From: an uncultured Acidobacteriota bacterium
Lineage (GTDB): Bacteria > Acidobacteriota > Thermoanaerobaculia > Gp7-AA8
Direction of reading: 5' to 3'
Assembly (NCBI GenBank): GCA_963822445.1
Contig: CAWGHO010000001.1
Span: 1,088,001-1,152,000, forward strand
DNA length: 64,000 bases
The notes beneath the pieces were generated by a model. It had not been told where the DNA came from. It saw only the letters and a program-made list of their open reading frames with translations, and ran no database searches. A program made the translations under genes and the position numbers. Shown here piece after piece: positions 15,370-57,393 of this stretch. The first letter of the stretch is position 1. Every line of letters begins with the position of its first letter.

Positions 15370-15372
15370 TTT

Positions 15373-18222: not shown

Positions 18223-18230
18223 CGCGCTGA

Positions 18231-18312
18231 GTGATTAGTGGTTAGTCGTTAGTGATTAGTAGCCACGCGGAACCGGCTTCCTAATCACTAATCACTAACC
18301 ACTAATCACTAA
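18231..18312. repeat. Heptamer tandem-repeat hairpin (GTGRTTA-type)
   Basis: GTGATTA/GTGGTTA/GTCGTTA units and inverted CTAATCA/CTAACCA units between convergent genes. Confidence 0.85.
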
Positions 18313-27883: not shown

Positions 27884-29019
27884 GAAGAAGATGATAACCC
27901 GCGCATGATCGCGACCACGCGCTCGACCTCCTCCGCGTCGTTGTAGAAGTGGGGCGAGAACCGCAGCATCCCCTCGCGGGGCGCGCAAACTACCCCTTCT
28001 TCCTCGAGGCGGCGGTGGTACCACAGAAGCGACTTCTCTACATCTGGTGGAGTCACGCCGACGATCGGCGAGGCGATGGGCTTCGGCGACCCGACCCGCC
28101 AGCCGATGGATTCGGCCCCCTCGGCCAACCGACGGGCAACAGCCAGAGCGTTTTCGGCAATGACGTCGATGCCGATCTCGAGGAGGAGGTCGACGGCCGC
28201 CCGCAAACCGTAGATCCCGTTGGTGTTCAACGATCCGGCCTCGAACCGGCGCGAGCTCGGAAGCAGGTCGGTCGGCGCGCCAATGAACTTCTGCTGCCGG
28301 TCGATGTTCATCCAGCCGTTTTCGAGGACCTCGAGCTCCTCGCGGCGTTCCTCCGCCACGTAGAAAATCGCGCACCCTTCCGGGCCACACATCCACTTGT
28401 GGCCGTCGGCCGCGAGGAAGTCGATGTTCGCCGCGCGGACGTCGATCGGCAGCACGCCCACGCCCTGAATGGCGTCGACACAGAAGCGGACGTTGCGCCG
28501 TGCGCAAAGCTCGCCGATCGCGATCACGTCAGCGACGAAGCCGTTGTGGAACGCGACGGAGGACACCGTGACGAGACGGGTGCGGTCGTCAATCAGCGGC
28601 TCGATGTCTTCCACGGTCGGTGTTGCGGCGACGCGGCACTCGACACCGCGGCGCGCGAGCACTTTCCAGGGCGTCCAGTTCGAGGGGAACTCGATGGCGG
28701 TGGTGATGACGTTGTCGCCGTCGCGCCAGCGCAGACCTTCCGCGACGAAGGACAGGCCTTCGGAGGTGTTCTTGAGGATGGCGATCTCGCCCGGCTTCGC
28801 GCCGATGAGACGCGCCAGGGACTCGCGAAGGTGGTCGTACTCCGCGTACCAGTCGCGCCAGTGCAGCGCGCCGTAATCGCGCTGATCGCGCGCGTGACGC
28901 TCCATCGCTTCGTAAGCGCGTGTGGAGAGCGGGCCGACGGCGGCGTGATTGAAGTAGATGAGATTTCCCGTGACCGGGAAGAGATCTTTAAAAGCGGCGG
29001 AGGTCATCGAGGTAGGCAT
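27880..29019 (-). CDS. Class V PLP-dependent aminotransferase
   Basis: YFNHAAVGP, VDAIQ, DGHKWMCGP and RFSPHFYN. Confidence 0.9.
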   Translation of the reverse strand: MPTSMTSAAFKDLFPVTGNLIYFNHAAVGPLSTRAYEAMERHARDQRDYGALHWRDWYAEYDHLRESLARLIGAKPGEIAILKNTSEGLSFVAEGLRWRDGDNVITTAIEFPSNWTPWKVLARRGVECRVAATPTVEDIEPLIDDRTRLVTVSSVAFHNGFVADVIAIGELCARRNVRFCVDAIQGVGVLPIDVRAANIDFLAADGHKWMCGPEGCAIFYVAEERREELEVLENGWMNIDRQQKFIGAPTDLLPSSRRFEAGSLNTNGIYGLRAAVDLLLEIGIDVIAENALAVARRLAEGAESIGWRVGSPKPIASPIVGVTPPDVEKSLLWYHRRLEEEGVVCAPREGMLRFSPHFYNDAEEVERVVAIMRGLSSSS

Positions 29020-30142
29020 CGTAGCTGCGCCGCATCTCGGTCATGGTGTCGCCGCCGAATTTCTCGCGCATCGCACCGGCCAGGACGATGGCCAGCATGG
29101 CTTCGCAGACGACGCCGCACGCCGGAACGGCGGTGACGTCGCTGCGCTCCCACTGCGAGCGATGTGCTTCCCGCGTCTCGATGTCGACGCTCGGAAGTCC
29201 GCGACGCAGAGTGGAAATCGGCTTCATGAACGCGCGAACGACGATGTCCTGCCCGTTGGTGACGCCGCCTTCGAGGCCGCCCGCACGATTGGTCTCGCGG
29301 TAGTACCGCCGCGTGTCATCGAAGTAGATCGCGTCATGAACTTCCGATCCGAGTCTGCGCGCGGCCGCGACCCCGTCGCCGACCGCAACGGCCTTGACCG
29401 CGTGAATGGAGAGGATGGCCTGGCCGATGCGGCCATCGAGCTTTTCGTTCCACTGAACATAGGAGCCGAGTCCGACGGGTACGCCGCGCGCGGCGATGAC
29501 GATCGTGCCGCCGAGGGTCTCGCCGGCTTCTTTGGCGCGGTCGACGGCGGCGATCATGTCCGCCTCGCTGTTGACCGCGCGCAACGGTGAGTCATCATCG
29601 ACGTCGAGGTCGTCCCAGGTCGGTGAGTACTCCGGATCGCCCGCGTCACCGACGGACACGACGCCGGAGCGGATCTCGATTCCGAACGCGCGCAGCAACT
29701 CCTTCGCGATCGCCCCCGCCGCCACCCGCCCCGCGGTCTCGCGGGCCGACGCGCGCTCGAGGATGTCGCGCAGATCGCGGCGGCCGTACTTCATCCCCCC
29801 CGCGAGATCGACATGCCCCGGCCGCGGTGCGTGGACGCGACGCTTGTGGGTCTCGGCTTCGTCGAGGTCCCACGGGTCCATCGCTTTCTGCCAGTTTTCA
29901 TGATCTTTATTGCGGATGACGATGGCGATGGGAGCGCCGATGGTCTCCCCGCCTCGGACCCCGCCGACGATTTCGGCTTCGTCGGATTCGATCTTCATGC
30001 GGCCGCCGCGGCCGTAGCCGTGCTGGCGCCTTCGCAGGTCGTCGTTGATCCTGGTTCTGTCGAGTCTCAGGCCCGCGGGGATGTTCTGCACGAGGATCGT
30101 GAGTTGGGGGCCGTGGGATTCGCCGGCTGTTGTGAAGTGCAT
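28988..30142 (-). CDS. aroC: Chorismate synthase
   Basis: TAGESHG, PRPGH, ERASARET, MKPISTL and RSD. Confidence 0.96.
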   Translation of the reverse strand: MHFTTAGESHGPQLTILVQNIPAGLRLDRTRINDDLRRRQHGYGRGGRMKIESDEAEIVGGVRGGETIGAPIAIVIRNKDHENWQKAMDPWDLDEAETHKRRVHAPRPGHVDLAGGMKYGRRDLRDILERASARETAGRVAAGAIAKELLRAFGIEIRSGVVSVGDAGDPEYSPTWDDLDVDDDSPLRAVNSEADMIAAVDRAKEAGETLGGTIVIAARGVPVGLGSYVQWNEKLDGRIGQAILSIHAVKAVAVGDGVAAARRLGSEVHDAIYFDDTRRYYRETNRAGGLEGGVTNGQDIVVRAFMKPISTLRRGLPSVDIETREAHRSQWERSDVTAVPACGVVCEAMLAIVLAGAMREKFGGDTMTEMRRSYDAYLDDLRRF

Positions 30143-30181
30143 TGGTTCGCTCGCTCACCCTCAACTCTATCCCGCCGAAAG

Positions 30182-30588
30182 TTTATCCCGCGCGAAGACG
30201 CGGGATCTCTCCGTGCACCGACGCAACTACTCCAACAAGCGCAGAGGATCCAGCCGCGACGAAAGATCCAACCAGTTCGGATTCATGGTTTGAATCAGCG
30301 CGACTCGTCGCGACCGATGCCACTTCTTGATTTCTTTCTCGCGCTTCGCGGCCGCGGTCATCGACCGCGCCACTTCGAAGTACACGAGCCGATCGAAGTG
30401 ATAGCGCGCTGTGAATCCGTTTGGATACGCGCCGGTCTTATGCTGCTCGAAGCGTTCGCGGAGATTCGTTGTGATGCCGCAATACAGCGTGTGGCTGACG
30501 TTCGAGACGATATAGACGAACGCGTGTCGCACGTGGCTACGTTCGTCGCGGTGTAACCGGGAGATCCCGCGTCTTCGCGCGGGATAAA
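30182..30588. mobile_element. Putative GIY-YIG element bounded by perfect 28-bp inverted repeats
   Basis: TTTATCCCGCGCGAAGACGCGGGATCTC at 30182-30209 and its reverse complement at 30561-30588. Confidence 0.7.
30227..30532 (-). CDS. GIY-YIG nuclease family protein
   Basis: VYIV...LYCGIT...R...H...FT...LVYFE...AxxREKEIKKW...NPNW. GTG start, 101 aa. Confidence 0.9.
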   Translation of the reverse strand: MRHAFVYIVSNVSHTLYCGITTNLRERFEQHKTGAYPNGFTARYHFDRLVYFEVARSMTAAAKREKEIKKWHRSRRVALIQTMNPNWLDLSSRLDPLRLLE

Positions 30589-31358
30589 GTGACGAAAACG
30601 AGAGCAAGCCCCGCGACCACCAGTAGCACAGAGATCACCTGCGCCACCGTAAACGACCCGAAAAACCGGTCATCCTTCGCCCGCACGATCTCGACGAGAA
30701 ACCTCTCGATCCCCAGCAAGATCATGAACAGCGCCCACGACAGCCCCCGCGGATGCGGCCGGCGGTTCAAAACCATGAGAACCGCGAACATGAGCAAAGC
30801 CGCGAAGGCCTCATACAACTGCGTCGGGTGCACCTTCAGCACCTGATACCCAGGGATCGAAGGATCGACGAAGACCCCGAACTCCCGCAGGGAATCGGCG
30901 GTCGTCGGCGGCGCACCTTTCGGAAAGGCCACGCCGACCCAGGCATCCGTCGGGCGGCCGTAATCGTCGCCGACCAGGAAGCAGCCGATGCGGCCGAGGG
31001 CGTAGCCGAGGGAGAGGGCGGGGGCGGCGGCGTCGGCGGCTTTGAGGTAATCGACGCGGGCGCGGAGGACCACGAACGACGCGGCCAGGAATCCGCCGAT
31101 CAGGCCTCCGTACCAGACCAGCCCGGCGCGGTCGAAGAGCAGGCGCCAGTCCTTGAAAAGAATCGCGTAGTAGATCTTCGCGCCGATGATCCCGCCCAGC
31201 GCGCCGGCGACGACGATCGACGAGGCCAGTTCCTCATCGATGCCTTGGCGCCGGAACTCCCGCGCCAGCACCCAGCCTCCGATCACGAAGGCGAGGAACA
31301 TCATCAACCCGAAGGTCGTGATCTCGAAGTTACCGACTTTTATTAGGGTTGGCCACAT
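30537..31358 (-). CDS. lgt: Prolipoprotein diacylglyceryl transferase
   Basis: GLVWYGG, LGRIGCF, HPTQLYE and RFxVE. Confidence 0.93.
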   Translation of the reverse strand: MWPTLIKVGNFEITTFGLMMFLAFVIGGWVLAREFRRQGIDEELASSIVVAGALGGIIGAKIYYAILFKDWRLLFDRAGLVWYGGLIGGFLAASFVVLRARVDYLKAADAAAPALSLGYALGRIGCFLVGDDYGRPTDAWVGVAFPKGAPPTTADSLREFGVFVDPSIPGYQVLKVHPTQLYEAFAALLMFAVLMVLNRRPHPRGLSWALFMILLGIERFLVEIVRAKDDRFFGSFTVAQVISVLLVVAGLALVFVTLSRAKTRDLPVTPRRT

Positions 31359-31370
31359 GCGGCGCGGAGC

Positions 31371-32504
31371 TTATACCGCGGCCTTCTCCAGGCTGGCCTT
31401 CTGATCGGAGATGAAGCGGAACACATCCACCTTCCCGGCCTGATCGAGATGCTGGGAGACCTCGAACAGTTGCACGGACAGCAGTGTGTTCAGCCCTTCA
31501 TCCAGCACGGCCTTCCGCCGCTCGAACGGCAGCTCGGAGATGTTGGCGATGAGCATGTTCTCGTCGAAGCGGCCGTACTGATCGAAGAACACGCCCGCCC
31601 ACAGCTCGTCCGTCTCCGCGTTCTGGAGGATGGTCATGAAGATGTCCCGGGCCTGGTCCTCGCCCACCTGCTTCTCCAGCGATTCGAAGAGGCGGCCGAA
31701 CATGTCGTTGTACGTGGAGATGACTTTGAGCAGCTCCGGCGAGTCCTCGACGTCGAGGAACACCGGGCGGAAGATCTTCTCCTCTTCCTTCACCACCTCG
31801 ATGAGCCGCGCGCTGAGGAGCTGAAAAAGGATGCGCGCCACCTCGAACTGGGTGAGCTCCGAGCGGCCGGTCAGCTCGCGCACATTCAGCTTTCCGTCGA
31901 TGTTCTTGTAAACCGCGATCTCCCCGTCATTCAGGTCCAGGCCCGCGAAATCGGGCACGCTGCCGTGGACCTTCGCGAAGACGATGTCGAGGTTCGGGAT
32001 CTTCTCGAGGATGTGCGCCGACTCGTCGAGGCGGCGGATGCCTTCCATGATCACGCTGGAGGTGTTGATCTGGAGGACGATCCTCTCCTGGGCCAGCTCC
32101 TCGTTCGAGTTGTAGAACGCGAACTCGCCGGCCTTCCAGCCGAAGAGCGAGTAGATGATCTCCAGGACCTGGTTCTTGACGCCCCACCAGAGGTCTTTCG
32201 GGGAGATGGCGCCCATCTGCACGAGCAGCTTGCCGTGGCGGACCTGCGGGGTGACGCGGCGCTTCGACTCCTCGTACTGCTCGCGCGTGATCTTGCCGTT
32301 GCGCAGCAGGAACTGGCCGAGGGAGTGCTCGGGGGAGTTCGAGCTGGCGAAGACGATCTCCCCTTCCTTCCAGTGGATCGTCCGCTCGAGCTCCCCGTTC
32401 TGCAGCTGGAGCTTGCCCGTCTCACGGATCATGGCCATGAAACTCAAGACGTCGGGCAACTGAATCTTCTTCAGATCCCCCTGAAGGATGGCTTTATCAG
32501 GCAT
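31371..32504 (-). CDS. DUF4388 domain-containing protein
   Basis: LQGDL...LPDVL...TGKL...GEIVFA...LGQFL...WKAGEFAF...MEGIRRLDE. Confidence 0.8.
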   Translation of the reverse strand: MPDKAILQGDLKKIQLPDVLSFMAMIRETGKLQLQNGELERTIHWKEGEIVFASSNSPEHSLGQFLLRNGKITREQYEESKRRVTPQVRHGKLLVQMGAISPKDLWWGVKNQVLEIIYSLFGWKAGEFAFYNSNEELAQERIVLQINTSSVIMEGIRRLDESAHILEKIPNLDIVFAKVHGSVPDFAGLDLNDGEIAVYKNIDGKLNVRELTGRSELTQFEVARILFQLLSARLIEVVKEEEKIFRPVFLDVEDSPELLKVISTYNDMFGRLFESLEKQVGEDQARDIFMTILQNAETDELWAGVFFDQYGRFDENMLIANISELPFERRKAVLDEGLNTLLSVQLFEVSQHLDQAGKVDVFRFISDQKASLEKAAV

Positions 32505-32567
32505 TTCGGACCAGTCGGTCACAACAATGCCATCGGAACCGGGTCGGGGCAAGAAGGATTTCTTGGG

Positions 32568-32603
32568 GGTTACGGGGTTGCGGGGTTACGAGGTTGCGGG
32601 GTT
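32568..32603. repeat. Single arm of the octamer tandem repeat
   Basis: GGTTACGG GGTTGCGG GGTTACGA GGTTGCGG. It contains the cysteine desulfurase stop codon. Confidence 0.75.
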
Positions 32604-33710
32604 CATTCGGCAGCGCGGCACCACTTCCGCCAGCAGTTCGAGCGCTCGACCGATCTCCGCTTCCGTCGTCATTCGCGAGAGTGAGAATCGGACGGTCGCG
32701 CGGGCTTCGTCCGGGGTCAGGCCCATGGCGATGAGCACCGGACTGGGTTCGACGCGCCCTGACGAACACGCCGAGCCGGTCGAGACGGCGACGCCGGCGA
32801 GGTCGAGGCCGATGACGATGCCTTCACCGTCGGCATCGGGGAAAGTCACGTTGCTCGTGTTCGGGACGCGGCGGGCGTCGCGGCCGTTGATCGTGCCCGG
32901 CACCTGCGACTCGAACCGGTCGCGCAAAGCGGCAACCCGCGAACGCGGCTCGGGATCGGCGGCCAGCGTCGCGGCGACTCCGAATGCTGCCGCGAGGGGC
33001 ACGTTCTCCGTGCCCGCGCGGCGCCGGCGCTCCTGCGCACCGCCCAGCAGATGCGACGACAGCGGGAGGCCTTTGCGGACGTACAACGCCCCGATGCCTT
33101 TCGGCGCATGCATCTTGTGCGCTGAAAGCGACAACGTGTCACAGTGGATCGACGCGACATCGACGTCGATCTTCCCCGCAGCCTGTACGGCATCGACATG
33201 AAAGTGAATGCCACGGCTGCGACAGGCGGCGCCGATCTCCTGGACCGGCTGCACGACGCCGGTCTCGTTGTTGGCCATCATCACCGCGACCAGCGCCGTG
33301 TTCTCGCGCAACGCCGCGATGACGTCCGACGCCGCGACGTCGCCGCGCCGTGAAGGCAGGATGCGCGTGACCTCGCAGCCTCGCTTCTCCAGCTCGCGAA
33401 CAGGCTCAGCAACAGAGGGATGCTCGATGGCCGTTGTCACGATGTGGAAACCATGACCCGCGGTGGACGCTCCAAAAATGGATGCGTTGTTAGACTCGGT
33501 TCCGCCGCTTGTGAACACGATCTCCCGTGCGGTCGCGCCGATCAGACGCGCGACCGCCTCGCGAGCGTCTTCAATGAGGCGGCGGGCAGTCTGGCCTTCT
33601 TTATGAATCGAGGACGCATTCCCAAAGACGTCGCGCAGAGACTCTTCCAGAACGAGGAGAACCTCCGGGTGGATCGGCGTCGTGGCGTTGTTGTCGAGAT
33701 AAATCCGCAT
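32586..33710 (-). CDS. Cysteine desulfurase (IscS/NifS group I)
   Basis: YLDNNATT, SGGTES, ANNETG, SAHKM, RAGTEN and STGSACSS. Confidence 0.93.
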   Translation of the reverse strand: MRIYLDNNATTPIHPEVLLVLEESLRDVFGNASSIHKEGQTARRLIEDAREAVARLIGATAREIVFTSGGTESNNASIFGASTAGHGFHIVTTAIEHPSVAEPVRELEKRGCEVTRILPSRRGDVAASDVIAALRENTALVAVMMANNETGVVQPVQEIGAACRSRGIHFHVDAVQAAGKIDVDVASIHCDTLSLSAHKMHAPKGIGALYVRKGLPLSSHLLGGAQERRRRAGTENVPLAAAFGVAATLAADPEPRSRVAALRDRFESQVPGTINGRDARRVPNTSNVTFPDADGEGIVIGLDLAGVAVSTGSACSSGRVEPSPVLIAMGLTPDEARATVRFSLSRMTTEAEIGRALELLAEVVPRCRMNPATS

Positions 33711-33724
33711 CGGTCAGGACACTC

Positions 33725-36352
33725 ATGAAGCGCATCGCGTTGGCTGTCGCAATGACGCTCGCGTACGCGGCGACCATTCTCGGTCAGAACCCGCCCGCCG
33801 CGCGCGATCCGAAACAGGACGAGGCAAAGAGCGAGACGCTGCGCAAGCTTTCCCGCCGCGAGCGCAAGGCCCGCATCAGCAAACTGGAGATCCGCTTCCA
33901 GGACTTTCTCACCGACGTCGAGCCGATCGCCCCTTCGTCGGAGATCGACGCTTTCCTGGCGCTGGAGAGCGACGCCCAGCGCGACTCGTTCGTCGACGAC
34001 TTCTGGCGCCGCCGCGAAGCATTGCAGGGCGTCCCGAACCAGTCGTTCCGCGACGTGTACTACCAGCGGCTCGACATCGCCAAGGAGCAGTTCAAGCGGA
34101 TCAATACCGACCGGGCGAAGATGTTTCTCATTCACGGCCCGCCGGCGAACGTCCTCAGGACCGACTGCCAGCGCCTCCTCCAGCCCTCGGAGATCTGGAC
34201 GTATCCGGAGATCAAGGGCCTGGGCACGAGCGTGAAGCTGCTCTTCTACAAGCCTCGCAATGAAGCGGAGTACAAGCTCTGGAATCCGCTCGGCGGATCG
34301 ATGGCCCTCAACGATCTGGTCACCCAGGAAGTGGCCGGGATGGGCGGCGCGGGCGATGCCGCATCGCGACGCACTTCGATTGGCTCGGGCAGTCCGTACA
34401 ACTACGTCAGCCGCATCCAGCTCGAATGCATCGCCGGCGCCGAGATTTTGAAGGCCCTCACCCAGATGGTGCAGGGGCGCGTCGATCTCCTGAAGGTGTT
34501 CGAGCCAACGCGCGGCGAAACCACTGACACCGCGCGCCTGCTGCGGTCCGCGGTCATCACCAATCCCGACGCGCCGAAGCTCACCGCCGACTTCAGCGTC
34601 CGCTTTCCCGCCAAGGACGGCAGCCGGACCGACGTGCAGATGATGCTGCTCGTGCCGCGCTCCGAGCTCTCGCCGGCCGAAGTGAACGGCACGGAGATCT
34701 ACACGATCGACGTCGCCGGCGAGGTGTTGAAGGAAGGGAAGCTCTGGGAGAAGTACCGCTACCGCTTCGACTTCCCCACGGACATGAAAGGCGATCATCT
34801 CCCGATCGTGATCGACCGCCTGCTGCGGCCGAACAGCTACACCTCGCGCATCAAGGTCGTCGACGCGAACGGCGGCGCGGAAGTCATCGTCGAGCGCGAG
34901 CTGGAAGTGCCGGAGATCTTCGTTCCGGAGTCCGCGGAAGCAATCGCGGAGACGAAAGCCACGGAGGCCAAACCCGTTGAGCCGGTGGCTCAACCGATCG
35001 AAGTACCGGTTCGATCCGCGAGCTTGCGCCTCATTCCGCCGCCGGAAGGCATCGTCAGCGGGATCAAGGCCTTCGAGACGCTCATCGAAGGCGACGAGAT
35101 CAAAGGCGTGGAGTTCTGGCTCGACGGCCGGAAGATCGCCGTCCGCCGCTCCGCCCCTTTCGCCGTCGACCTCGACCTCGGCGAAGTCCCGCAGATGCGC
35201 CGCATCCGCGCGGTCGGCATCGACGCGGCCGGTAAGGCCATCGCCGGCGACGACATCCGCGTCAACACCGGCACGGAGCCGTTTCGCGTACGCATCACTT
35301 CCCCTCGCATCGCGCCGCATGTCGTCGGACCGACGCGCGTGGAAATGGATGTGAGCGTTCCGGACAGCGAGGAGCTGGCGTCGCTCGAGCTGTACTGGAA
35401 CGAGCGACGGGTCGCCACGATGTACGACGCGCCGTTCGTGCAGACCATCGACATTCCTTCGACCGACGGCGTCGGCTATCTGCGGGCCGTGGCCACGCTC
35501 AAAGGCGACACGCTGCCGCCGATCGAAGACGTGGTCATGATCAACACGCCCGCGTACATGGAGGAGCTCGACGTCCATCTCATCGAGCTCCCGACCACGG
35601 TCCTCGTCGGCGGCAAGCCCACCAGCCATCTCACCGAAAAGGACTTCAAGGTCCTCGAGGACGGCAAGCCGGTGACGATCGCGAAGTTCGAGTACGTGAA
35701 GAACCTTCCCCTGTCGATCGGCATGGCCGTGGACACGTCGGGCTCGATGCAGTTCCGGATGGAAGAAGCGCAGAAAGCCGGCGCGACGTTCTTCCAGAAG
35801 GTGCTGAAGAAAGGCGACAAGGCCTTCCTCCTCGCGTTCGACGAAAAGCCGGAGATGGTGCAGCGCTGGTCGAGCAAGCTCGCCGACATGCACGCCGGCC
35901 TGGCGAAGCTGCGCTCGCAGGAAACCACCGCGCTGTACGACGCGATCGTGGAGTCGCTCTACAACTTCCAGAGCGTGCGCGGGCAGAAGGCGCTGGTCCT
36001 GATCTCGGACGGCAAGGACACCGCGTCGAAGTACACCTTCGATCAGGCCCTCGAATACGCGCGCCGGGCCGCGGTGCCGATTTACGCGATCGGCGTCGCC
36101 ATCCGCAGCAACGACCTCGATGTGCGGCAGAAGCTGTCGAAGCTGTGCTCCGAAACGGGCGGAACGGTCTACCACATCGAGCGCGCCGCGGATCTCGATC
36201 GGATCTACGACGACATCCAGACCGAGCTCCGCTCCCAATACATCCTCGGCTTCTATCCAACCATCGACGAGAAGAGCAGGAACAAGTGGCGCGAGGTGGA
36301 CGTGAAGGTGTCGGAAGGCAAGGCCAGGACGCTCAGGGGTTACTACCCATGA
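33725..36352 (+). CDS. Secreted GWxTD-like + Ig-like + VWA domain protein, paralog 1
   Basis: Signal peptide, FWRRR...TDRAKMFLIHGPP and a MIDAS DTSGS motif. Confidence 0.8.
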   Translation: MKRIALAVAMTLAYAATILGQNPPAARDPKQDEAKSETLRKLSRRERKARISKLEIRFQDFLTDVEPIAPSSEIDAFLALESDAQRDSFVDDFWRRREALQGVPNQSFRDVYYQRLDIAKEQFKRINTDRAKMFLIHGPPANVLRTDCQRLLQPSEIWTYPEIKGLGTSVKLLFYKPRNEAEYKLWNPLGGSMALNDLVTQEVAGMGGAGDAASRRTSIGSGSPYNYVSRIQLECIAGAEILKALTQMVQGRVDLLKVFEPTRGETTDTARLLRSAVITNPDAPKLTADFSVRFPAKDGSRTDVQMMLLVPRSELSPAEVNGTEIYTIDVAGEVLKEGKLWEKYRYRFDFPTDMKGDHLPIVIDRLLRPNSYTSRIKVVDANGGAEVIVERELEVPEIFVPESAEAIAETKATEAKPVEPVAQPIEVPVRSASLRLIPPPEGIVSGIKAFETLIEGDEIKGVEFWLDGRKIAVRRSAPFAVDLDLGEVPQMRRIRAVGIDAAGKAIAGDDIRVNTGTEPFRVRITSPRIAPHVVGPTRVEMDVSVPDSEELASLELYWNERRVATMYDAPFVQTIDIPSTDGVGYLRAVATLKGDTLPPIEDVVMINTPAYMEELDVHLIELPTTVLVGGKPTSHLTEKDFKVLEDGKPVTIAKFEYVKNLPLSIGMAVDTSGSMQFRMEEAQKAGATFFQKVLKKGDKAFLLAFDEKPEMVQRWSSKLADMHAGLAKLRSQETTALYDAIVESLYNFQSVRGQKALVLISDGKDTASKYTFDQALEYARRAAVPIYAIGVAIRSNDLDVRQKLSKLCSETGGTVYHIERAADLDRIYDDIQTELRSQYILGFYPTIDEKSRNKWREVDVKVSEGKARTLRGYYP

Positions 36353-38853
36353 AACGCGCGCTTCTTTTCGCACTCGCGCTTCTCACCGCCGCCCCCCTCC
36401 TCGCCGACGAGCCGAAGCCGCTCTCGCGCCGCGAGCGGAAAGACAAGGTCGCCGAGCTCAAGGACGCGTATCGCCAGTTCCTGATCGAGGTCGAGCCGAT
36501 CATCACCACCGCCGAGCGCGATACCTTCCTCCGCCTCGACACCGACCCCCAGCGCGAGACGTTCATCTCCGATTTCTGGCGCCGCCGCGACATCGCCGCC
36601 GGCACGACCAACGATTCCTACCGCAAGGAGTACTACGTCCGCCTCGAGGTCGTGAAAAACGACTTCGGCCAGATCTCGTCGGACCGCGGGAAGATGTATC
36701 TCGTCCACGGCGAGCCGGCGCAGATCGTCACCGTCACCAATTGCACGAACGTTCTCCAACCCGTTCAGGTCTGGGGATATCCCTATCTGCAGGGCTTCGG
36801 CCGCGACGTGCTGATCCTCTTCTACATCCCGCGGAATCAGCGCGATTACAAGTTGTGGCGGCCGATCCACGGCACCGGCATCGACGAGCTTCGTTCCGGC
36901 GATCTGATGCGCCGGAGTGCCGACGGTGATGGGGTGTCGTCGCAGGCGATTCTGCGGGACTGCCGCGACGGCGAGTTCATCCTCGCCGCGTTGAACCAGA
37001 TGAGTCAGAACGAGAGCAAGATTCTGCGGATCTTCGAGCCGCCGCCGATGAACGAGGAGGACGTCGATCGCATCCTCCGCTCGGTCGTGCTGACCGATCC
37101 GAAAGCGCCGAAGCTCACCGCGCAGGCAACGGTGGTGTATCCCTCCGGCGACGGAACCAAAACGGATGCGCAGATCCAGATCATCGTTCCCCGCGCACAA
37201 CTGAAGACGACCACCGCCGGCACCTCCTCGGTCTACACGATCGACGTCGTCGGCGAAGTGCTCCGCGACGAGAAGATGTGGGAGCGCTATCGCTATCGCT
37301 TCGATTTCCCCGGCGATATTCAGGACGAGAACCTGCCCATCGTCATCGATCGCATGCTCCGCCCGGCGACGTACAAGTCGCGGGTGAAGCTCACCGATCC
37401 GGTGACCGGCGCGCAGATCGTCCTGGAGAACGATCTCGTCGTTCCGGAAGTGGCGAAGGCCCAGACCGCCGAAGGCACGACGCTGAAGACCATCGCCGAG
37501 GATCTGCAGTCGACGCGGGCCACGCTGAAGATCATGCCCATCAACGAGGGGGTCGTCAGCGGCCTGCAGACCATCAACACGATGATCAGCGGCAGCGGCA
37601 TCAAGGCCGTCGAGTTCTGGCTCGATGGAAAGAAAGTCGCCACACGACGCGCGCCGCCGTACACGCTCGATCTCGACTTCGGCACAGTTCCGAGAGCACG
37701 CCGCATCCGCGTCGTCGCGCTCGACGCGCATGATCAGCTCATCACCGGCGACGAAGTCGTGGTCAACACCGGGAACGATCCGTTCCGCGTCCGCATCGTC
37801 TCGCCGCGTGTTGCGCCGAAACTCAGCGGACCGACCCGCGTCGAGGTGGAAGTCCGCGTTCCGGACGGCAAGCAGCTCGGAGCGGTCGAGCTGTACTGGA
37901 ACGAGCAGCGCGTGGCCACGATGTACGACCCGCCATTCGTGCAGACCGTGCACATTCCGTCGAAGGATGGCGTCGGCTACCTCCGCGCCGTGGCGATGCT
38001 GAAGGAAGAAGGCGTCGATCCGAGCGAGGACGTGGTCCTGGTCAATGCGCCCGACTACATGGAGACAGTGAACGTCCATCTGGTCGAGCTGCCGACGACG
38101 GTGCTGCGCGACGGCAAGCCGGTGCAGGGTCTGACCGAAACGGCCTTCAAGGTGCTCGACGAAGGGCAGCCGGTGAAGATCTCGAAGTTCGAGCATGTGA
38201 AAGACCTTTCGCTCTCCATCGGCATGGCCGTCGACACCTCGGGCTCGATGGAAGACAAGATGGCCGAAGCCCGGAACGCCGGCGCGGCGTTCTTCCAGAA
38301 TGTGTTGCGGAAGACGGACAAGGCGTTCGTGGTCGCGTTCGATTCACAGCCGCACCTGGTGCAGAAGTGGTCGAACGACATGTCGCAGATCCACTCCGGT
38401 CTGGCCAAGCTTCGCCCCGAGCAATCGACGGCTCTGTTCGACGCGATCGTCTACTCGCTCTACAACTTCCAGGGCGTGAAGGGGCAGAAAGCGCTGGTGC
38501 TTCTGACGGACGGCCGCGACACCGCCTCGAAATTCACCTTCCAGCAGGCCCTCGAGTACGCGCAGCGCGCCGCGGTGCCGATTTACGCGATCGCTCTCGG
38601 CATCCGCACGGCGGATCTCGATGCGCGCTCGAAGCTCAACAAGATCACCGCGGAGACCGGCGGCTCGGTGTACTACATCGAGACCGCCGACCAGTTGCAG
38701 AAGATCTACGACGACATCCAGAACGAGCTCCGCTCGCAGTACGTGCTGGGTTTCTACCCCGCGCCGGAAGTGAAAGCGGGCAGCAACTGGCGGCAGGTGA
38801 CGGTGCAGGTGGCCGAGGGGAAGGCGAAGACGATTCGGGGGTACTTCCCCTAA
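36349..38853 (+). CDS. Secreted GWxTD-like + Ig-like + VWA domain protein, paralog 2
   Basis: Collinear with paralog 1, with SDRGKMYLVHGEP, DTSGS and an ATGA overlap. Confidence 0.8.
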   Translation: MKRALLFALALLTAAPLLADEPKPLSRRERKDKVAELKDAYRQFLIEVEPIITTAERDTFLRLDTDPQRETFISDFWRRRDIAAGTTNDSYRKEYYVRLEVVKNDFGQISSDRGKMYLVHGEPAQIVTVTNCTNVLQPVQVWGYPYLQGFGRDVLILFYIPRNQRDYKLWRPIHGTGIDELRSGDLMRRSADGDGVSSQAILRDCRDGEFILAALNQMSQNESKILRIFEPPPMNEEDVDRILRSVVLTDPKAPKLTAQATVVYPSGDGTKTDAQIQIIVPRAQLKTTTAGTSSVYTIDVVGEVLRDEKMWERYRYRFDFPGDIQDENLPIVIDRMLRPATYKSRVKLTDPVTGAQIVLENDLVVPEVAKAQTAEGTTLKTIAEDLQSTRATLKIMPINEGVVSGLQTINTMISGSGIKAVEFWLDGKKVATRRAPPYTLDLDFGTVPRARRIRVVALDAHDQLITGDEVVVNTGNDPFRVRIVSPRVAPKLSGPTRVEVEVRVPDGKQLGAVELYWNEQRVATMYDPPFVQTVHIPSKDGVGYLRAVAMLKEEGVDPSEDVVLVNAPDYMETVNVHLVELPTTVLRDGKPVQGLTETAFKVLDEGQPVKISKFEHVKDLSLSIGMAVDTSGSMEDKMAEARNAGAAFFQNVLRKTDKAFVVAFDSQPHLVQKWSNDMSQIHSGLAKLRPEQSTALFDAIVYSLYNFQGVKGQKALVLLTDGRDTASKFTFQQALEYAQRAAVPIYAIALGIRTADLDARSKLNKITAETGGSVYYIETADQLQKIYDDIQNELRSQYVLGFYPAPEVKAGSNWRQVTVQVAEGKAKTIRGYFP

Positions 38854-39788
38854 CTCGCACCTGCTTTTCGTTCCTGAGCCGCTTTTTCCCGTTCCGCGGC
38901 CCGCTCCTCGCGACGCCGGTTCGCATCTTCCTTCAGACGCAGAGCAATGGCACGGCCGGTATCGGTCGTGGCCAATCCGCCTTCCGCCGTCTCGCGCAGG
39001 CCGCGCGGCAGTGATCGTCCGATGCGCACCATCGCTTCGACGATTTCGTCCATCGGAATGACTGACTCCACGCCCGCCAGCGCGAGCTGAGCGGCGGTAA
39101 GTCCGTGCACGGCGAACAGCGCATTGCGTTTGACGCACGGCACTTCGACGAGGCCGCCGACCGGGTCGCAGACCAGGCCGAGGGTGTTCTTGAGGGCCAT
39201 GGCCGCGGCGTGGATCGCTTGTTTCGTGTTGCCGCCCATCATGTAGGCGACGCCTGCGGCGCCCATCGCCGAGGCGACGCCGACTTCGTTCTGGCAGCCG
39301 CCCGCGGCGCCGGAGATGTTCGCGGAGAGGGCAATGATCGATCCGACTCCACCGGCGACGACGAGTGCGCGAACGGTCTTTTCCGGATCGACGTGGCGCT
39401 CTTCCTCGAGCGCGAGCAGCATCCCGGGAACGACTCCGCCCGCCCCCGCCGTCGGCGCGGCTACGATGACGCCCATGCGGGAGTTCTCTCCCATCACCGC
39501 CAGCGCGTAAATCTCGGCTTTCACGGTGAGCGGATCGAGAAAAACCCGCCCTTCGACCAGAGCCTGATGCAGGAGCCGCGCTTCATTGCCGACCAGCCGC
39601 CCCATCGACTCGCCGCCGCTCTGCGTTCCGCGCTCCACACAGTCGCGCATGACCGCCCGGCGTTTGCGGAGCGCCTCCACGATCTGCTCGCCAGGAATCG
39701 CATGCTCCTGCTCGTCGGCCTCGAGGAAGACGTCGGCGAGGTCACGGTCAGCGGCGAGTTGTTCGAGTTGTTTGAAGGATTCGATCAT
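38850..39788 (-). CDS. sdaAA: L-serine dehydratase, Fe-S dependent, alpha subunit
   Basis: AAPTAG, GGCQNEVG and GLVCDPVGGLVEVPCVKRN. Confidence 0.93.
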   Translation of the reverse strand: MIESFKQLEQLAADRDLADVFLEADEQEHAIPGEQIVEALRKRRAVMRDCVERGTQSGGESMGRLVGNEARLLHQALVEGRVFLDPLTVKAEIYALAVMGENSRMGVIVAAPTAGAGGVVPGMLLALEEERHVDPEKTVRALVVAGGVGSIIALSANISGAAGGCQNEVGVASAMGAAGVAYMMGGNTKQAIHAAAMALKNTLGLVCDPVGGLVEVPCVKRNALFAVHGLTAAQLALAGVESVIPMDEIVEAMVRIGRSLPRGLRETAEGGLATTDTGRAIALRLKEDANRRREERAAEREKAAQERKAGAS

Positions 39789-39798
39789 CGGTTTCTCA

Positions 39799-39911
39799 AG
39801 TTTATCCCGCGCGAAGACGCGGGATCTCTACGTGCACGAACGAGCGCCGTGCAACAGGCTATTTCGTCGCGGTATGACCGGGAGATCCCGCGTCTGCGCG
39901 CGGGATAAACT
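39799..39911. mobile_element. Non-autonomous, internally deleted copy of the GIY-YIG element
   Basis: Same 28-bp inverted repeats (one mismatch on the right) and shared subterminal sequence, with no ORF. Confidence 0.7.
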
Positions 39912-39919
39912 GGAGAACC

Positions 39920-40603
39920 TCACGGAATCCGATCCAGATACCGCGCGTCCGCCACATCCTCCATCGAGCAGACCCGCTTCAGCGCGGCGTCGGAGATCGG
40001 GGAGTCGACGTCGATCTGCATGAAGGCGTCCTTGCCCCGCTGTTTGCGCGAGCAGTAAAGCGAGGCGATGTTGATGCCTTCCTCGGCGATGATCTTCGTG
40101 ACCTCGGAGATCATCCCCGGGCGGTCGCGGTAGAACAGCAGCAGCGTCGGCGAATCGCCTTTGAAACGGGTCTGGAAGCCGTTGATCTTGAAGACCTCGA
40201 TCACTCCGCCGCCGATCGACGAGCCCATGATCTCCGCCTCGCGGTTCGGGCCTTTGATCTCGATGCGCACCGTGTTCGGGTGCACTTCGCCGAGGTCCTC
40301 GTCGGAAAAGGTGATGTTGACGTCCATCTGCTCGGCGATGCGGATCGCCTCGGGGATCCGGGGGTCGTCGACATTCAGGCCGATCGAGCCGCCGACCAGG
40401 GCGAAGTCCGATCCATGGCCGCGATAGGTCGCGGCGAGCGGCGGATGGAGGAAAAAGTGAACGTCCACCGGGTCTTCGTTGAGGATCTCCCGGGCCACCC
40501 GGCCCAGGCGCGCGGTCCCCGCGGTATGGGAGCTCGACGGTCCCACCATCACCGGTCCCATGACGTCCAGAATGCTCACTTTTCGATCGTGTCGAACGGC
40601 CAT
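39920..40603 (-). CDS. sdaAB: L-serine dehydratase beta subunit with ACT domain
   Basis: GPVMVGPSSSHTAG, HPNT, SIGGG and DRPGMI. Confidence 0.93.
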   Translation of the reverse strand: MAVRHDRKVSILDVMGPVMVGPSSSHTAGTARLGRVAREILNEDPVDVHFFLHPPLAATYRGHGSDFALVGGSIGLNVDDPRIPEAIRIAEQMDVNITFSDEDLGEVHPNTVRIEIKGPNREAEIMGSSIGGGVIEVFKINGFQTRFKGDSPTLLLFYRDRPGMISEVTKIIAEEGINIASLYCSRKQRGKDAFMQIDVDSPISDAALKRVCSMEDVADARYLDRIP

Positions 40604-43508: not shown

Positions 43509-46500
43509 ATGCACCGTTCCGCGTCGATTTTGCGCACGCTTGCGCTGTTTGCCGTTCTCGCCGTTGCCTCCGTCGCACAGGCGGTCTCGACCACCATGGT
43601 GATCAGTCAGTTTCAGGTCGCGGGAGGTACGGCCGCGGACGAGTTCGTCGAGCTGCACAACGTCAGCGGCAGCCCGATCGATCTGAACGGCTACCGGGTC
43701 GTCTACCGCTCGGCGGCCGGCGTCAGCGATGTCGCGGTGATCAACTGGACGACGACCACAACCGTCCCCGCCGGTGGCTACTACCTGATCGTGCACGCCA
43801 CCGGGTACGACAACGGCGTGACGGTTCCGGGCGACATCACGTTCCCCGGCGGCGGTACGGGCACGTTTGCGGCGGCCGGAGGCGGCTTTGCCTTGCGGCA
43901 GGGAGCTGCCAACACCGGCACCATCATCGATTCGGTCGGGTACGGCACGGCCACCAACGCGTTCGTGGAGTCGACCGTTGAGCCGGCGCCGGCGGCGAAC
44001 CAGAGCGCCGCGCGGCTGAATAGCGGCTGCACGGATACCGACAACAATGCGAATGATTTCGCGGTCCTCAATCCGGCCGTGCCGCGCAACTCCGGCACGA
44101 CGGCGTTCCTCTGCGCGCCGCCGCTTCCCAGCCTGACGATCGACAACGTCGGCGTCACAGAAGGGAACGCCGGCACGGTCGCGGCGATATTCACCGTGCA
44201 ACTGAGCGCGCCGGCCGGTCCCGGCGGTGTGACGTTCGACATCGCCACCGCGGACGGCACGGCCACCATCGCTGACAACGACTACGTCACCAAGTCGCTG
44301 ACTGGAGAGACGATCGCCGCTGGCAACAACAGCTACTCATTCACGGTCGACGTGAACGGCGACGTCGCCATCGAGAACACCGAGACCTTCTTCGTGAACG
44401 TCACCAACGTCGTCGGCGCGACCGTCGGCGACGGCCAGGGCCAGGGCACGATCACCAACGACGACTCGCCCACCCTCTCCATCGACGACGTCTCCCTGAA
44501 CGAGACCGATGCCGGCACGACCACCTTCACCTTCACGGTCTCGCTCTCGCAGGCGGCCGGCGCGGGCGGGGTCACGTTCGACGTCGCCACCGCGGACGGC
44601 ACGGCCACGGCCGGCACCGACTACGTCGAGATCACCACCACTCCGATGACCATCACCGTGGGCAACACGTCCGCGGTCGTCAACGTCACGGTCAACGGCG
44701 ACACGACCTTCGAGCCGGGCGAGACGTTCCTGGTCAACATCACCAACGTCACCGGCGCGACGGTCAACGACGGCCAGGGCCAGGGAACGATCGTCAACGA
44801 CGACATCAGCGTTTCCATCAACAGCGTTTCGAAAGCCGAAGGAAACGCCGGTACGACGATCTACAACTTCGTCGTCACCTTCAGCGAAGCACCTGGAGCC
44901 CGGACCGTCACCTTCGACATCGCCACCGCCGACGTGACCGCCACCGCGGGCACAGACTATGTCGCCAACGCCGCGACCGGAGTCAGCCTCACCGGCGCCA
45001 CCACCACCTACGCCTTCGACGTCACTGCCAACGGCGACGGCACATTCGAGCCGACGGAGACGTTCGCCGTAAACGTCACCAACATCACCGGCGGCAGCGC
45101 CCCTGACGGCACCACCAGCACCAGCGGCACCGGCACGATCACCAACGACGACGCCGCGCCCACCTTCGCCATCGACGACGTGAAGGTCATCGAGGGCAAC
45201 GCCGGCACGAGCCTGATGACCTTCACGGTCACGCTCGCCAGCGCATCGACCAACCCCTCGTCGGTCGACTACCTCACCTCCGACATCAGCGCGACCGTGG
45301 CCGACAGCGACTACGTCACCGCGAGCGGCACGCTCAACTTCGCCGCGGGAGACGTCTCCGAAACGTTCACCGTCACGATCAACGGCGACACCAACATCGA
45401 GGGCGACGAGGACTTCCTGGTCACGCTCTCGAACCCGGTCGGCGCCACGATCGCGGACAGCACGGGCCTCGGCGTGATCGGCATCGACGACGCGTTCAGC
45501 ATCGCTGCCGTCAATACGCCTTTCACCCAGAACTTCGATGTCCTCTCGGCCGATGACACGGCCGGCGTCCGCGCCGCCACCACGCCCGCCGCCTGGACGT
45601 TCGACGAGAACGGCACCGGCGTGAACGTGACCTACCGCCCGAGCGACGGCTCTTCCAACACCGGCAATGCCGGCGACACCTACAGCCTCGGCAGCACCGG
45701 CTCGTCCGACCGCGCATTCGGCGCGCTCGCCAGCAACGCCGTGCAGGCCACCCTCGGCGGCTACTTCCGCAACGACACCGGCGAAACCATCACCACCCTC
45801 TCCATCGCCTACACCGGCGAGCAGTGGCGTCTCGGCACCGCCGACGCGATCGCCGACCGCCTCGACTTCGCGTACAGCACCGACGCAACGACGCTCGACA
45901 GCGGGACGTGGACCGAGGTCAATTCGCTCGACTTCACCAGCCCCACCGCGACGCCCGCGGGTCCGCTCGATGGCAACGCCGTCGCCAATCGCACCCCCGT
46001 CGGTTACACGATCGCCGGCCTGTCGCTCGCCCCGGGCGCGACGATCTGGCTGCGCTGGGTCGATCCGAACATCAGCGGCAACGACGACTCCCTCGGCATC
46101 GACGACTTCTCGATCATCGCCAACATCGCCGGCGGCGTGCTGACCATCGACGACGTCACCCTCGTCGAAGGCGACGGCGTGGGCACCGTCAACTTCGTCT
46201 TCACGGTCTCCCTCACCCAGCCCGCGGGTCCCGGCGGCGTCAGCTTCGACATCACCACCGCCGACAACACCGCCACGGCGGGATCGGATTACGTCACCAA
46301 CACCCTGACCGGCCAGGTCATCCCCGAGGGACAGAGCACCTACCAGTTCACGGTCGTGGTGAACAGCGATGACACGGAGGAGCCCAGCGAGACCTTCTTC
46401 GTCAACGTCACCAACGTCGGAGGGGCGACGCTCAGCGACGGCCAGGGCATCGGCACGATCGCCAGCGACGACTTCACCTTCACCCGCATTCACACGATCC

Positions 46501-49500
46501 AGGGCAGCGGCCTGCAGTCGCCGCTCAACGGCTCCACCGTCACCGTCGAAGGCATCGTCACCGGCATCAAGTCCGGCGGCAGCGGCGGCTTCTTCGTGCA
46601 GGAACAGGTCGCCGACTACGACGTCGACCCGCTCACTTCCGAAGGCATCTTCGTCTTCACCGGCGGCTCGAATCCGCCGTCCGTCGTGATCGGCAACCTC
46701 GTCGCCGTCACCGGCACGGTCAGCGAGTTCCCCTCCTCGGCGAACCCGCACACGGTCACCGAGCTCGCGGGCACGGTCTCCGTCGACCTGCTTTCCGGCG
46801 TGCAGCAACCGCTTCCCGCCGCGGTCGTGCTCACGACTGCCGACGGCGCGCCGAGCAGCAATCTTTCGCAGTACGAGGCCTACGAAGGCATGCGCGTCTC
46901 CGCGACACTCACCGTCGTCGCGCCGACCGACGGCTCCATCGACGAGAACGACGCCACCTCGAGCAGCAACGGCGTCTTCTACGGCGTGATCGCCGGCAAC
47001 CCGCGGCCGTTCCGCGAGCCGGGCATCGAGCAGACCTACACCATTCCGCCGGAGGCCGCCTGCGCGGCCTGCATCGACCGCTTCGACGAGAACCCGGAGA
47101 AGATCCGCGTCGACAGCGACAACCAGCCCGGCGCCACGCAGCTCAACGTCGTCGCCGGCCAGACCGTCTCGAACCTGGTCGGACCGCTGGACTACGGGTT
47201 CTTCGAATACACGCTGCTGCCCGAGGCCGAGACGGTGCCGATCGTCTCCGGCGACAGCACCGCCGACCCGGTTCCGACGCCGCTCCTGACCGAGCTGACG
47301 GTTGCCGGCTTCAACCTGTTCCACTTCTTCGACAACGCCGATGATCCGGACGTCAGCGACGTCGTCCTGACCGTGACCGCGTACAACAACCGGTTGAACA
47401 AGGCCTCGCTGGCCATCCGCAACATCCTTCAGACGCCGGACGTGATCGGCGTGATCGAAGTCGACAACGTCAACACGCTGCAGGCACTGGCCACCAAGAT
47501 CAACACCGACACTGCCGGCGTCACGAACTACTTCGCCTACCTCGAGGAAGGAAACGACGTCGGCGGCATCGATGTCGGCTTCCTCGTCGATCTGAACCGC
47601 GTGACCGTGCAGGCTGTCACCCAGATCGGCAAGGACACGACCTGGATCAATCCGCACACCGGCCTGCAGGATTCGTCGGAGCTGAACGACCGGCCGTCGC
47701 TGGTCCTGGAAGCTTCCATCGTCCGCCCCGACCTCACGCAGTACGAGTTCGTGGTCATCGTGAACCACCTCCGCTCGCTCATCGGCATCGAAGAGGACAG
47801 TTCCGGCGGCCGCCGCGTCCGCGCGAAACGCGCCGCGCAGGCCGAGTTCCTGGCCAGCTACGTTCAGGGCCGTCAGGTCGCCGATCCGACCGAGCGGATC
47901 ATCCTCGTCGGCGACTTCAACGCCTTCGAAGTGAACGACGGCTTCGTCGACGTCATGGGCACGATCAAGGGATCGCCCGCTCCCGCGACCGAGGTCGTCG
48001 AGCCGACCGACGATCTGGTGAACCCCAATCTGACCAACCTCATCGAGACGTTGCCTGCCGATCAGCGCTACACCTACGTTTTCGACGGCAACGCTCAGGC
48101 AATCGATCACGCGCTCGTGAACGCGGCCATGCTGCCTTCGGTCTCGCAGTTCGTCGTCGCGCACCTCGACGCCGACTTCCCGGTCATCTTCTACGGCGAT
48201 TCCGCCCGTCCGGAGCGGCTCGCCGATCACGACGCGACGGTTTCGTACTTCGACCTCACCCCGCTGCCGCAGATCTCCATCGGCGATACCTCGGTGACGG
48301 AAGGCCAGTCGGGCACGACCGTGATGACTTTCACCGTCACGCTCAGCGACCCGGCGGCCACGACGGTGACCGTCGACTACACCACCGCGAACGGTACGGC
48401 CACGGCCGGCTCCGATTACACCGCGGAGAGCGGCACGGTGACGTTCGTGCCCGGCGACCAGTCCGAGACCATCACCATCGACGTGAGCGGCGACCTGCTG
48501 CTCGAGACCGACGAGACTCTCACCGTCACGCTGAGCAACGCATCCGTCACGGCGATGATCAACGACGGCACGGCCACGGGCACGATCCTCAACGATGACG
48601 TCCCGTCGGGCATCTCCATCGCGGACAACTCCGTCGCTGAAGGCAACTCCGGCACGACCCCGTTGACGTTCACCGTCACGCTGGCCAACCCGGTTCCGCA
48701 GACGGTGACGGTCGACTACACGACGTCGAACGGCACGGCCACGGCCGGCTCGGATTACGTCGCCGAGAGCGGCACGATCACCTTCCTGGCGAACGATCAG
48801 TCCGAGACCATCACCATCGACGTGAACGGCGACCTGCTCCTCGAGAGCGACGAGACGTTCACCATCACGTTGAGCAACCCCTCCCCCACGGCCACGCTCA
48901 CCGACGGATCGGCCACCGGAACCATCACCAATGACGACGTGGCCTCGGGCATCGTCATCGGCGACGTCTCCCAGGCCGAAGGCAATGCCGGCACGACCGC
49001 GATGACGTTCACCGTCACCCTGGCCAACCCGGTTCCGGAGCCGGTGGTCCTCAACTACACGACCTCCAACGGAACGGCCATCGCCGGAACGGACTACGTT
49101 GCGGAAAGCGGCACCATCACCTTCGTCGCGAACGACCAGTCCGAGACGATCACTATCGACATCAACGGCGACACCGATTTCGAAGCCGATGAGACCTTCA
49201 CGGTGACGCTGAGCAATGCGCCGCCGACCACGGTCATCAACGACGGCACGGCCACCGGCACGATCCTCAACGATGACGTGCCCTCGGGCATGTTCATCAG
49301 CGACTCCTCGGCCACGGAGACCAATGCCGGAACGACGACGATGACCTTCACCGTTTCGCTGGCAAACCCGGTCGGCTCGACGGTGACCGTGGACTACACG
49401 ACGTCGGACGGAACGGCCACCGCCGGTTCGGATTACGTCGCCCAGAGCGGCACGCTGACGTTCGTGGCCGGCGACCAGTCGGAGCAGATCGTGATCACCG

Positions 49501-54545: not shown

Positions 54546-54622
54546 GGTAGGCGGTACGCGGCAGGCGGTAGGCGGGAAATCCTCGTTCCCCCGCCTACCG
54601 CCCACTGCCTACCGCCTACTGC
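54546..54622. repeat. Heptamer tandem-repeat hairpin (GGTAGGC)n
   Basis: Four direct units and four inverted CGCCTAC-type units. Confidence 0.82.
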
Positions 54623-57388: not shown

Positions 57389-57393
57389 TTCCA

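Follow-up and report, generated by a model that had tools for sequence, protein, structure and literature searches.

An Ssn-like nuclease gene between outward-facing hairpin repeats and gene-less copies of the repeat pair in the Thermoanaerobaculia (Acidobacteriota)

Introduction

The 64,000-nucleotide stretch of DNA analyzed here (the window) comes from an uncultured bacterium of the Thermoanaerobaculia and carries a gene for a 101-amino-acid (aa) GIY-YIG protein between two inverted hairpin repeats, together with a second pair of the same repeats that lacks the gene. By homology, the protein is a hairpin-directed endonuclease of the Ssn family with predicted activity on single-stranded DNA (ssDNA). 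Its gene looks like an old, mostly vertically inherited resident that has occasionally been relocated, in the manner of a REP-associated tyrosine transposase (RAYT) gene and not of an active multicopy insertion sequence (IS), and gene-less repeat pairs were gained at new sites while these species diverged. We put the probability of this reading as a whole, a Thermoanaerobaculia Ssn/SRM locus with a resident gene and newly inserted gene-less pairs, at roughly 0.85.

Proteins of the Ssn family (cd10448), such as the 94-aa SsnA of Neisseria meningitidis, consist of a single GIY-YIG domain (Chenal et al. 2025, PMC11893778). The enzymes characterized in that paper, from Neisseria and Wolbachia, bind an oriented hairpin repeat (SRM is its general name, and NTS its name in Neisseria) only as ssDNA and cut a few nucleotides (nt) upstream of it; cleavage is strand specific, and double-stranded DNA and RNA are inactive as substrates. 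Mutation of Y6, Y17, and E64 abolished cleavage by SsnA. The base after the palindrome was the most critical one for binding, the trinucleotide preceding the palindrome governed cleavage, and a series of oligonucleotides placed the cut of Neisseria SsnA 3 nt before the 28-nt NTS oligonucleotide. SRMs were found near 71% of the homologs and on both sides of 42%; Thermoanaerobaculum aquaticum is listed without a homolog in Supplementary Data 4 of the paper. Its authors remarked that NTS-ssnA-NTS resembles an insertion sequence, drew the parallel to repetitive extragenic palindromic (REP) sequences or bacterial interspersed mosaic elements (BIMEs) and their transposase, and proposed domestication, without a test of repeat movement. 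Modulation of transformation in Neisseria is the only biological role demonstrated for the family. Our literature search returned PMC11893778 as the only paper on SsnA or cd10448 and otherwise nothing relevant that links GIY-YIG proteins to transposons, MITEs (miniature inverted-repeat transposable elements), REP sequences, or RAYTs.

An earlier reading of the letters of the window alone (the sequence-only reading) had taken the two repeat pairs for an autonomous and a nonautonomous element mobilized by a GIY-YIG enzyme in place of a recognized transposase. The novelty does not hold, as the protein belongs to the published Ssn family and both the IS-like layout and the REP/RAYT parallel had already been noted (PMC11893778); the kind of system, Ssn/SRM, is one already published.

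Results

The window protein is an Ssn homolog

The gene starts with a GTG codon at position 30532 of the minus strand and ends with a stop codon at 30227-30229. A GIY-YIG domain (PF01541; E value of 3.2e-14) is the sole Pfam domain of the 101-aa product. When a plasmid collection of 7.3 Gb was searched with tblastn, two Neisseria gonorrhoeae records of ~2.17 Mb were matched (E values of 5e-11 and 2e-10). In a pairwise comparison, the window protein showed 38% identity to a 94-aa gonococcal open reading frame (ORF) with an E value of 4e-21, below the 1e-10 that the Ssn paper sets for homology. We took this ORF, around which a 1.66-kb segment contains seven perfect matches to the published NTS consensus, as the SsnA ortholog, so that the comparison was made with the gonococcal and not the N. 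meningitidis protein. Residues Y7, Y17, and E65 of the window protein align with Y6, Y17, and E64 of SsnA; all of 70 homologs have E65, and conservation of Y7 and Y17 among them is 90% or higher. Its length falls within the range of the family (roughly 90 to 110 aa with a single GIY-YIG domain). As a separate observation, records NZ_CP119140.1 (our locus L075) and NZ_CP119142.1, labeled as N. gonorrhoeae plasmids, are chromosome sized (~2.17 Mb) and almost unannotated and look mislabeled.

The gene-less pair in the window is an ORF-less version of the gene-carrying pair

The nuclease gene and its repeats lie next to lgt and aroC, and the gene-less pair is located ~9 kb away between the two serine dehydratase genes. 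The features are as follows.

30182..30209, plus strand: SRM-like hairpin repeat downstream of the gene, in inverted orientation to the upstream one (covariance-model match, 30171-30220)
30227..30532, minus strand: ssn-like gene, 101 aa, GTG start, single GIY-YIG domain (PF01541)
30561..30588, minus strand: upstream SRM-like hairpin repeat of the nuclease gene (covariance-model match, 30549-30599)
39790..39920, no strand: gene-less SRM doublet of 131 bp, resembling a REP doublet (REPIN) or a neisserial intergenic mosaic element (NIME), with arms at 39801-39828 (plus) and 39882-39909 (minus) and a spacer at 39829-39881
28988..30142, minus strand: aroC (chorismate synthase), starting 39 nt past the downstream repeat
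30537..31358, minus strand: lgt, with a Pfam LGT match over residues 3-255 of 273
38850..39788, minus strand: sdaAA (serine dehydratase alpha chain), downstream neighbor of the doublet
39920..40603, minus strand: sdaAB (serine dehydratase beta chain plus ACT domain), upstream neighbor of the doublet

The upstream repeat is in forward orientation on the gene strand, and its TTT-hairpin end points outward. The sequence-only reading had described perfect 28-bp inverted repeats, each with its own hairpin, around the gene. These were found without a single mismatch, but the repeats do not end at 28 bp; in full, they extend over 33 nt at 94% around the gene and over 36 nt at 94% in the short copy. 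The 28-mer occurs at four sites in the window and at no others, with no mismatch at 30182-30209, 30561-30588, and 39801-39828 and one mismatch, in the loop, at 39882-39909; none of 100 shuffled windows contained it. A covariance model of the repeat, run with the filters off, returned only the same four sites at an E value of <0.1. Each arm comprises an 8-bp stem and a 6-nt loop. As ssDNA, a single arm folds with -9.7 kcal/mol (z score of -2.2 to -2.7), and a single strand of the gene-less doublet folds with -52.3 kcal/mol (z score of -11). A search of the whole window against Rfam at the gathering threshold gave no matches.

The gene-less pair (39801-39909) encloses a 53-bp spacer that contains both of the untranslated ends that flank the gene in the long copy and has no ORF. 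When the short copy was aligned with the upstream end of the long one, 49 of 53 bases agreed, and the match stopped 2 nt short of the start codon; with the downstream end, where the match begins 3 nt past the stop codon, 41 of 44 bases agreed. Since both ends match in the same orientation, the short copy is an ORF-less version of the long one. The earlier description of one inverted-repeat unit in two versions, with and without the gene, that keeps subterminal sequence on both sides and lies between co-oriented genes (here, all on the minus strand) thus stood, and REP/RAYT is still the best analogy.

The doublet occupies the entire intergenic space between sdaAB and sdaAA. At the other site, the lgt ORF runs on through the upstream repeat and ends 4 nt before the ssn start codon; because of this read-through, the nuclease gene looks embedded in an lgt-ssn-aroC gene string. 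In this region (30537-30607), the repeat encodes the final ~17 codons of lgt, and lgt of locus L001 apparently also runs into a repeat.

The hairpin co-evolves with the nuclease gene

A protein search yielded 188 homologs, of which the named ones are from Thermoanaerobaculia or Acidobacteriota metagenome-assembled genomes. A genome scan gave 74 loci (965,887 bases; L numbers designate loci), all from genomes other than that of the window, with a best identity of 75%. In most of these loci, the gene was bracketed by inverted repeats far beyond the shuffled background. For the hairpin alignment, we used 49 ends of the 21- to 22-nt class; the window contributed 4 of them, and 30 loci contributed the other 45. 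Longer hairpins, for which MAFFT alignments are unreliable, were excluded. The closing A...T pair was invariant, compensatory changes were present at six of the eight stem pairs, and the outer five pairs were never unpaired. Stem covariation amounted to 0.309 compared to 0.117 in shuffled alignments, and none of 500 shuffles reached the observed value. All 49 sequences have a C right after the palindrome (column 37). The palindrome is preceded by the trinucleotide TTT in the clade of the window and by GTC in more distant clades. Conservation of the repeat stops at a CAG/AAG located three bases before the TTT; the flanks beyond are often T rich and are unconserved.

The hairpin co-evolves with the nuclease gene. 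When hairpin classes were mapped on a weakly resolved tree of 33 Ssn proteins, 17 changes were required compared to 21.9 after shuffling (1 of 1,000 shuffles was as low), a difference that is inflated by related sequences sharing labels. Such covariation between nuclease phylogeny and repeat had been proposed as a check by the sequence-only reading, and it is present, with relatedness contributing to it.

Repeats and gene-less doublets in related loci

In the 74 loci, the covariance model matched 118 times, with 85 matches within 300 bp of the gene. Without the 45 training sequences, 40 of 73 new matches fell into the ~7% of the sequence that lies near the gene, part of this enrichment arising by construction because the model was trained on gene-flanking ends. 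An outward-facing repeat pair surrounds the gene in 27 loci. We further found 15 gene-less doublets of 86 to 184 bp with the same arrangement (-> <-), of which seven lie >700 bp away from the gene, and the doublets of the gonococcal locus share this arrangement as well. There and in L004, the gene is positioned between doublets and not within one. In genome DASUSL01, the hairpin class of the L069 doublet is that of the genome's other paralog, L007.

Gene-less pairs were inserted at new sites

As these species diverged, gene-less pairs were gained at new sites. The sdaAB-sdaAA junction was compared in six loci of relatives. Three of them (L006, L012, and L015) have no insert, and the two genes overlap by an ATGA stop/start. 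The junction of L008 contains a doublet of a different hairpin class, and those of L014 and L039 contain unrelated palindromes made of octamer repeats. A second insertion was found in L004 (6947-7048), where a doublet of ~90 bp lies in frame in a class-V aminotransferase gene and adds ~27 residues that are absent from seven orthologs. The hairpin class of this intragenic doublet is unlike that flanking the nuclease gene of L004, which suggests a second paralog in that genome.

A consistent target-site duplication was found neither at the sda junction nor for 14 doublets nor for the intragenic insertion of L004, in line with the earlier impression that a clear duplication is missing. TGA/ATGA flanks the doublet of the window; this could be a duplication or could have been retained because the stop and start codons are under selection. 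Of the features expected for an IS/MITE pair, presence/absence at orthologous sites was observed for the doublets and, owing to an empty lgt-aroC junction in L009, for the gene unit. Several near-identical full-length copies were not found: the window has one, and the copies of L002 and L029, which belong to one genome, are 79% identical in DNA.

The nuclease gene looks like a vertically inherited resident

Seventeen loci carry both lgt and aroC, and in 13 of these the nuclease gene is located between the two, with one neighbor inverted in 3 of the 13. Among the exceptions, the gene lies before lgt in L003, between a DUF4388 gene and aroC in L004, and after aroC in L019. In L009, lgt and aroC share an ATGA overlap with no insert, and the gene and its repeats are found at a distance of ~5 kb. 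Empty junctions, which the sequence-only reading had suggested looking for in relatives, thus exist for both sites. Gene and repeats together occur at other sites in L009, L003, L016/L019, and L002. Pairwise distances of Ssn and AroC in 18 genomes were correlated (Mantel r of 0.63; none of 5,000 permutations reached this r), Ssn being about twice as divergent as AroC (mean of 0.39 compared to 0.19). Given its conserved position in 13 of 17 loci and a divergence that tracks that of AroC, the gene appears to be resident and vertically inherited. Together with the single nuclease gene copy in the window, this makes the earlier designation of an autonomous element doubtful. It had also been argued that syntenic orthologs lacking the repeats would speak against a mobile pair; the orthologs are syntenic, but they have kept the repeats, with covarying stems.

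Homologs disrupted by truncation or in-frame stop codons also occur (L029, L054, L064, and L068). In addition, short stretches that resemble degraded repeat ends (GGGATGAACTG, GAGATAAACTG, and GGGATAGAG) were observed between lgt and aroC of L003 (1200-1322) and immediately ahead of aroC in the window (30143-30181); these may be remnants of older copies.

Other repeats in the window

Four intergenic palindromes of the window (15366-15451, 16062-16137, 32564-32622, and 57301-57393) have arms of degenerate 8-nt tandem units, with GGTTNCGN facing CNCGNAACC. They constitute a second, unrelated palindromic repeat family in this lineage without a match in Rfam, and the palindromes at the sda junction of L014 and L039 are similar to them. 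Hairpins of short tandem units, TAGTGAT-like and GGTAGGCG-like, are located at 18230-18310, 54547-54619, and 55832-55857, one arm type being found again at 55832. Positions 33725-36352 and 36145-38853 contain tandem paralogs for large VWA/Big_7 proteins with 69 to 75% DNA identity at an offset of 2,501 to 2,573 bp. A long gene region at 44170-49620 contains ~339-bp tandem repeats (60 to 79% identical), as is typical of a repetitive surface or adhesin-like protein.

Discussion

Several results weigh against an Ssn/SRM locus with a resident gene and newly inserted gene-less pairs, besides the shared labels in the tree test and the training effect on the near-gene enrichment. For the window protein, NCBIfam has no family above its cutoff, and a sequence-profile search of the PDB returned only UPF0213 proteins (1zg2; E value of 5.3e-9) and no Ssn structure. 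None of the four arms of the window fits the published degenerate SRM motif (three of the four do if two 5' positions are relaxed), and in none of the 74 loci does the motif match at 300 bp or less from the gene; these repeats are therefore variants that the published screen would leave uncounted. In 30 of the 49 aligned ends, the two inner stem pairs are tandem G.A/A.G mismatches around a GNA loop closed by C-G. The window contains only four hairpins in 64 kb and does not show the high copy number of Neisseria. Gene and repeat pair do not form a fixed unit, since both L004 and the gonococcal locus have the gene between doublets. Finally, the copy at the syntenic lgt-aroC position of L029 (10001-10301) is a pseudogene with an in-frame stop and a frameshift.

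The closest known system is nevertheless that of Ssn and NTS/SRM (PMC11893778). It shares with the window a single-domain GIY-YIG protein of ~100 aa with the same catalytic residues, an oriented hairpin followed by a C that is essential in Neisseria, repeats on both sides of the gene, and -> <- doublets elsewhere. The window repeat differs by having TTT instead of GTC before the palindrome and by failing the published degenerate motif, repeat density in the window sequence is low, and the window gene lies inside a doublet, whereas the gonococcal and L004 genes lie between doublets. The host is an uncultured acidobacterial lineage outside the RefSeq set of that paper. With REPINs and RAYTs (Bertels and Rainey 2011, PMC3116915; Nunvar et al. 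2010, PMC2817692), the locus has in common a single-copy, vertically inherited gene flanked by its own hairpins and nonautonomous doublets of two inverted hairpins scattered in intergenic DNA. The window enzyme is, however, a GIY-YIG protein and not a HUH (Y1) tyrosine transposase, and four hairpins in 64 kb contrast with the high copy number of REPINs. To our knowledge, no covalent intermediate or strand transfer is known for the Ssn family. NIMEs are short units bounded by inverted copies of a hairpin repeat. The 131-bp doublet of the window is built in the same way, but sequence and host are different, and the window spacer derives from the untranslated ends of the nuclease gene. The dRS3 repeats of Neisseria are described in PMC11893778. 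IS200/IS605 elements were compared by the Ssn authors on account of their subterminal DNA hairpins that are recognized in ssDNA (PMC11893778). The two ends of these elements do not form an inverted repeat, and the same strand receives both cuts; the arms of the window are inverted and place one forward site on each strand.

By analogy to the enzymes of Neisseria and Wolbachia, the window nuclease would bind the forward strand of its cognate oriented hairpin only in ssDNA and nick the hairpin-bearing strand a few nucleotides 5' of the hairpin. Transferred from Neisseria, the nick would fall ~7 nt before the palindrome and ~1 base outside the conserved CAG, near the outer edge of repeat conservation. 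The basic unit is a pair of outward-facing hairpins (-> <-), with one pair of the window enclosing the nuclease gene and the other being empty, and the resident nuclease would presumably act on the gene-less pairs as well. Because the arms face outward, each strand would have one cuttable site, located at its 5' boundary.

Such nicking may or may not drive the spread of the doublets. That Ssn nucleases mobilize a new class of nonautonomous hairpin doublets, which would be nicked in ssDNA at the 5' boundary of each strand, while the gene itself is resident and RAYT-like, is a possibility that we hold tentatively and at less than even odds. The Thermoanaerobaculia data fit the traces that such a mobilizer would be expected to leave, namely, a hairpin and an enzyme that co-evolve, empty and filled orthologous sites, an in-frame intragenic doublet, and a repeat boundary at the extrapolated cut. 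A purely host-side role in ssDNA handling, as in Neisseria transformation, fits equally well; the enzyme could, for instance, trim incoming or exposed ssDNA.

The doublets might instead have been moved by another recombinase, by replication slippage, or by recombination between palindromes, with Ssn cutting for a host purpose such as limiting the recombination of ssDNA. We consider this explanation rather unlikely, although it has two points in its favor. Modulation of transformation is the only role demonstrated for the family (PMC11893778), and the sdaAB-sdaAA junction has gathered the palindromes of L014 and L039 as well as the other SRM class of L008; as these are unrelated to the doublet of the window, such junctions would seem to gather palindromes irrespective of the enzyme. 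The hairpin class, however, tracks the nuclease lineage, the L069 doublet has the class of the L007 paralog, and no transposase was seen beside the doublets, whose surroundings were not systematically annotated.

We regard it as distinctly improbable that gene and inverted repeats form an autonomous IS-like transposon with the GIY-YIG protein as its transposase and the short copy as its MITE. Terminal inverted repeats, an ORF-less derivative with both end-specific tails, gene and repeats at other sites in some relatives (L009, L003, L016/L019, and L002), and the insertion polymorphism of the doublets are all what such a transposon would produce, and the nick extrapolated from PMC11893778 would lie ~1 nt outside the conserved CAG boundary. 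These findings have to be set against the synteny of the gene in 13 of 17 relatives and the correlation with AroC, the single copy in 64 kb, and the lack of a consistent target-site duplication at the sda junction, in 14 doublets, and in the intragenic insertion. Since the two copies of one genome (L002 and L029) are only 79% identical, there was no recent burst, and the gene can sit outside doublets (L004 and the gonococcal locus). Furthermore, inverted arms would provide one cuttable site per strand and unit, and no strand transfer is known for the family (PMC11893778).

Two further explanations carry very little weight. GIY-YIG homing endonucleases, in which the nuclease domain is linked to a DNA-binding domain and whose genes reside in introns or stand alone in phages, exist, and a free-standing gene of this type that targets the lgt-aroC junction would account for the occupation of the same site in many species, synteny then reflecting site-specific homing; the candidate was rejected as a 101-aa single domain without a DNA-binding extension, TIGR01453 scored 16.7 bits against a cutoff of 56, the repeats are also present without the gene, and gene divergence tracks host divergence. 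The hairpins could likewise be ordinary terminators or mRNA-stabilizing palindromes unrelated to the nuclease, being intergenic and having stable stems, which is hardly compatible with their oriented, conserved flanks and invariant C after the stem, their strong concentration at the nuclease gene, and the lack of an Rfam match; a terminator was rejected, as no T-run follows the stem on either strand.

For the Ssn/SRM reading, the contribution of this locus is a divergent repeat class outside the published motif, together with comparative evidence on the question of mobility. The published motif misses whole cognate classes, namely, the TTT-flanked repeats and those with G.A-mismatched stems; the spread of Ssn/SRM systems is therefore probably underestimated. 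Natural enzyme-site pairs, which the Ssn authors proposed as ssDNA tools (PMC11893778), are probably more diverse than listed in that paper. The family was first described in 2025, and the acidobacterial clade informs the idea of its authors that NTS-ssnA-NTS is a domesticated mobile element.

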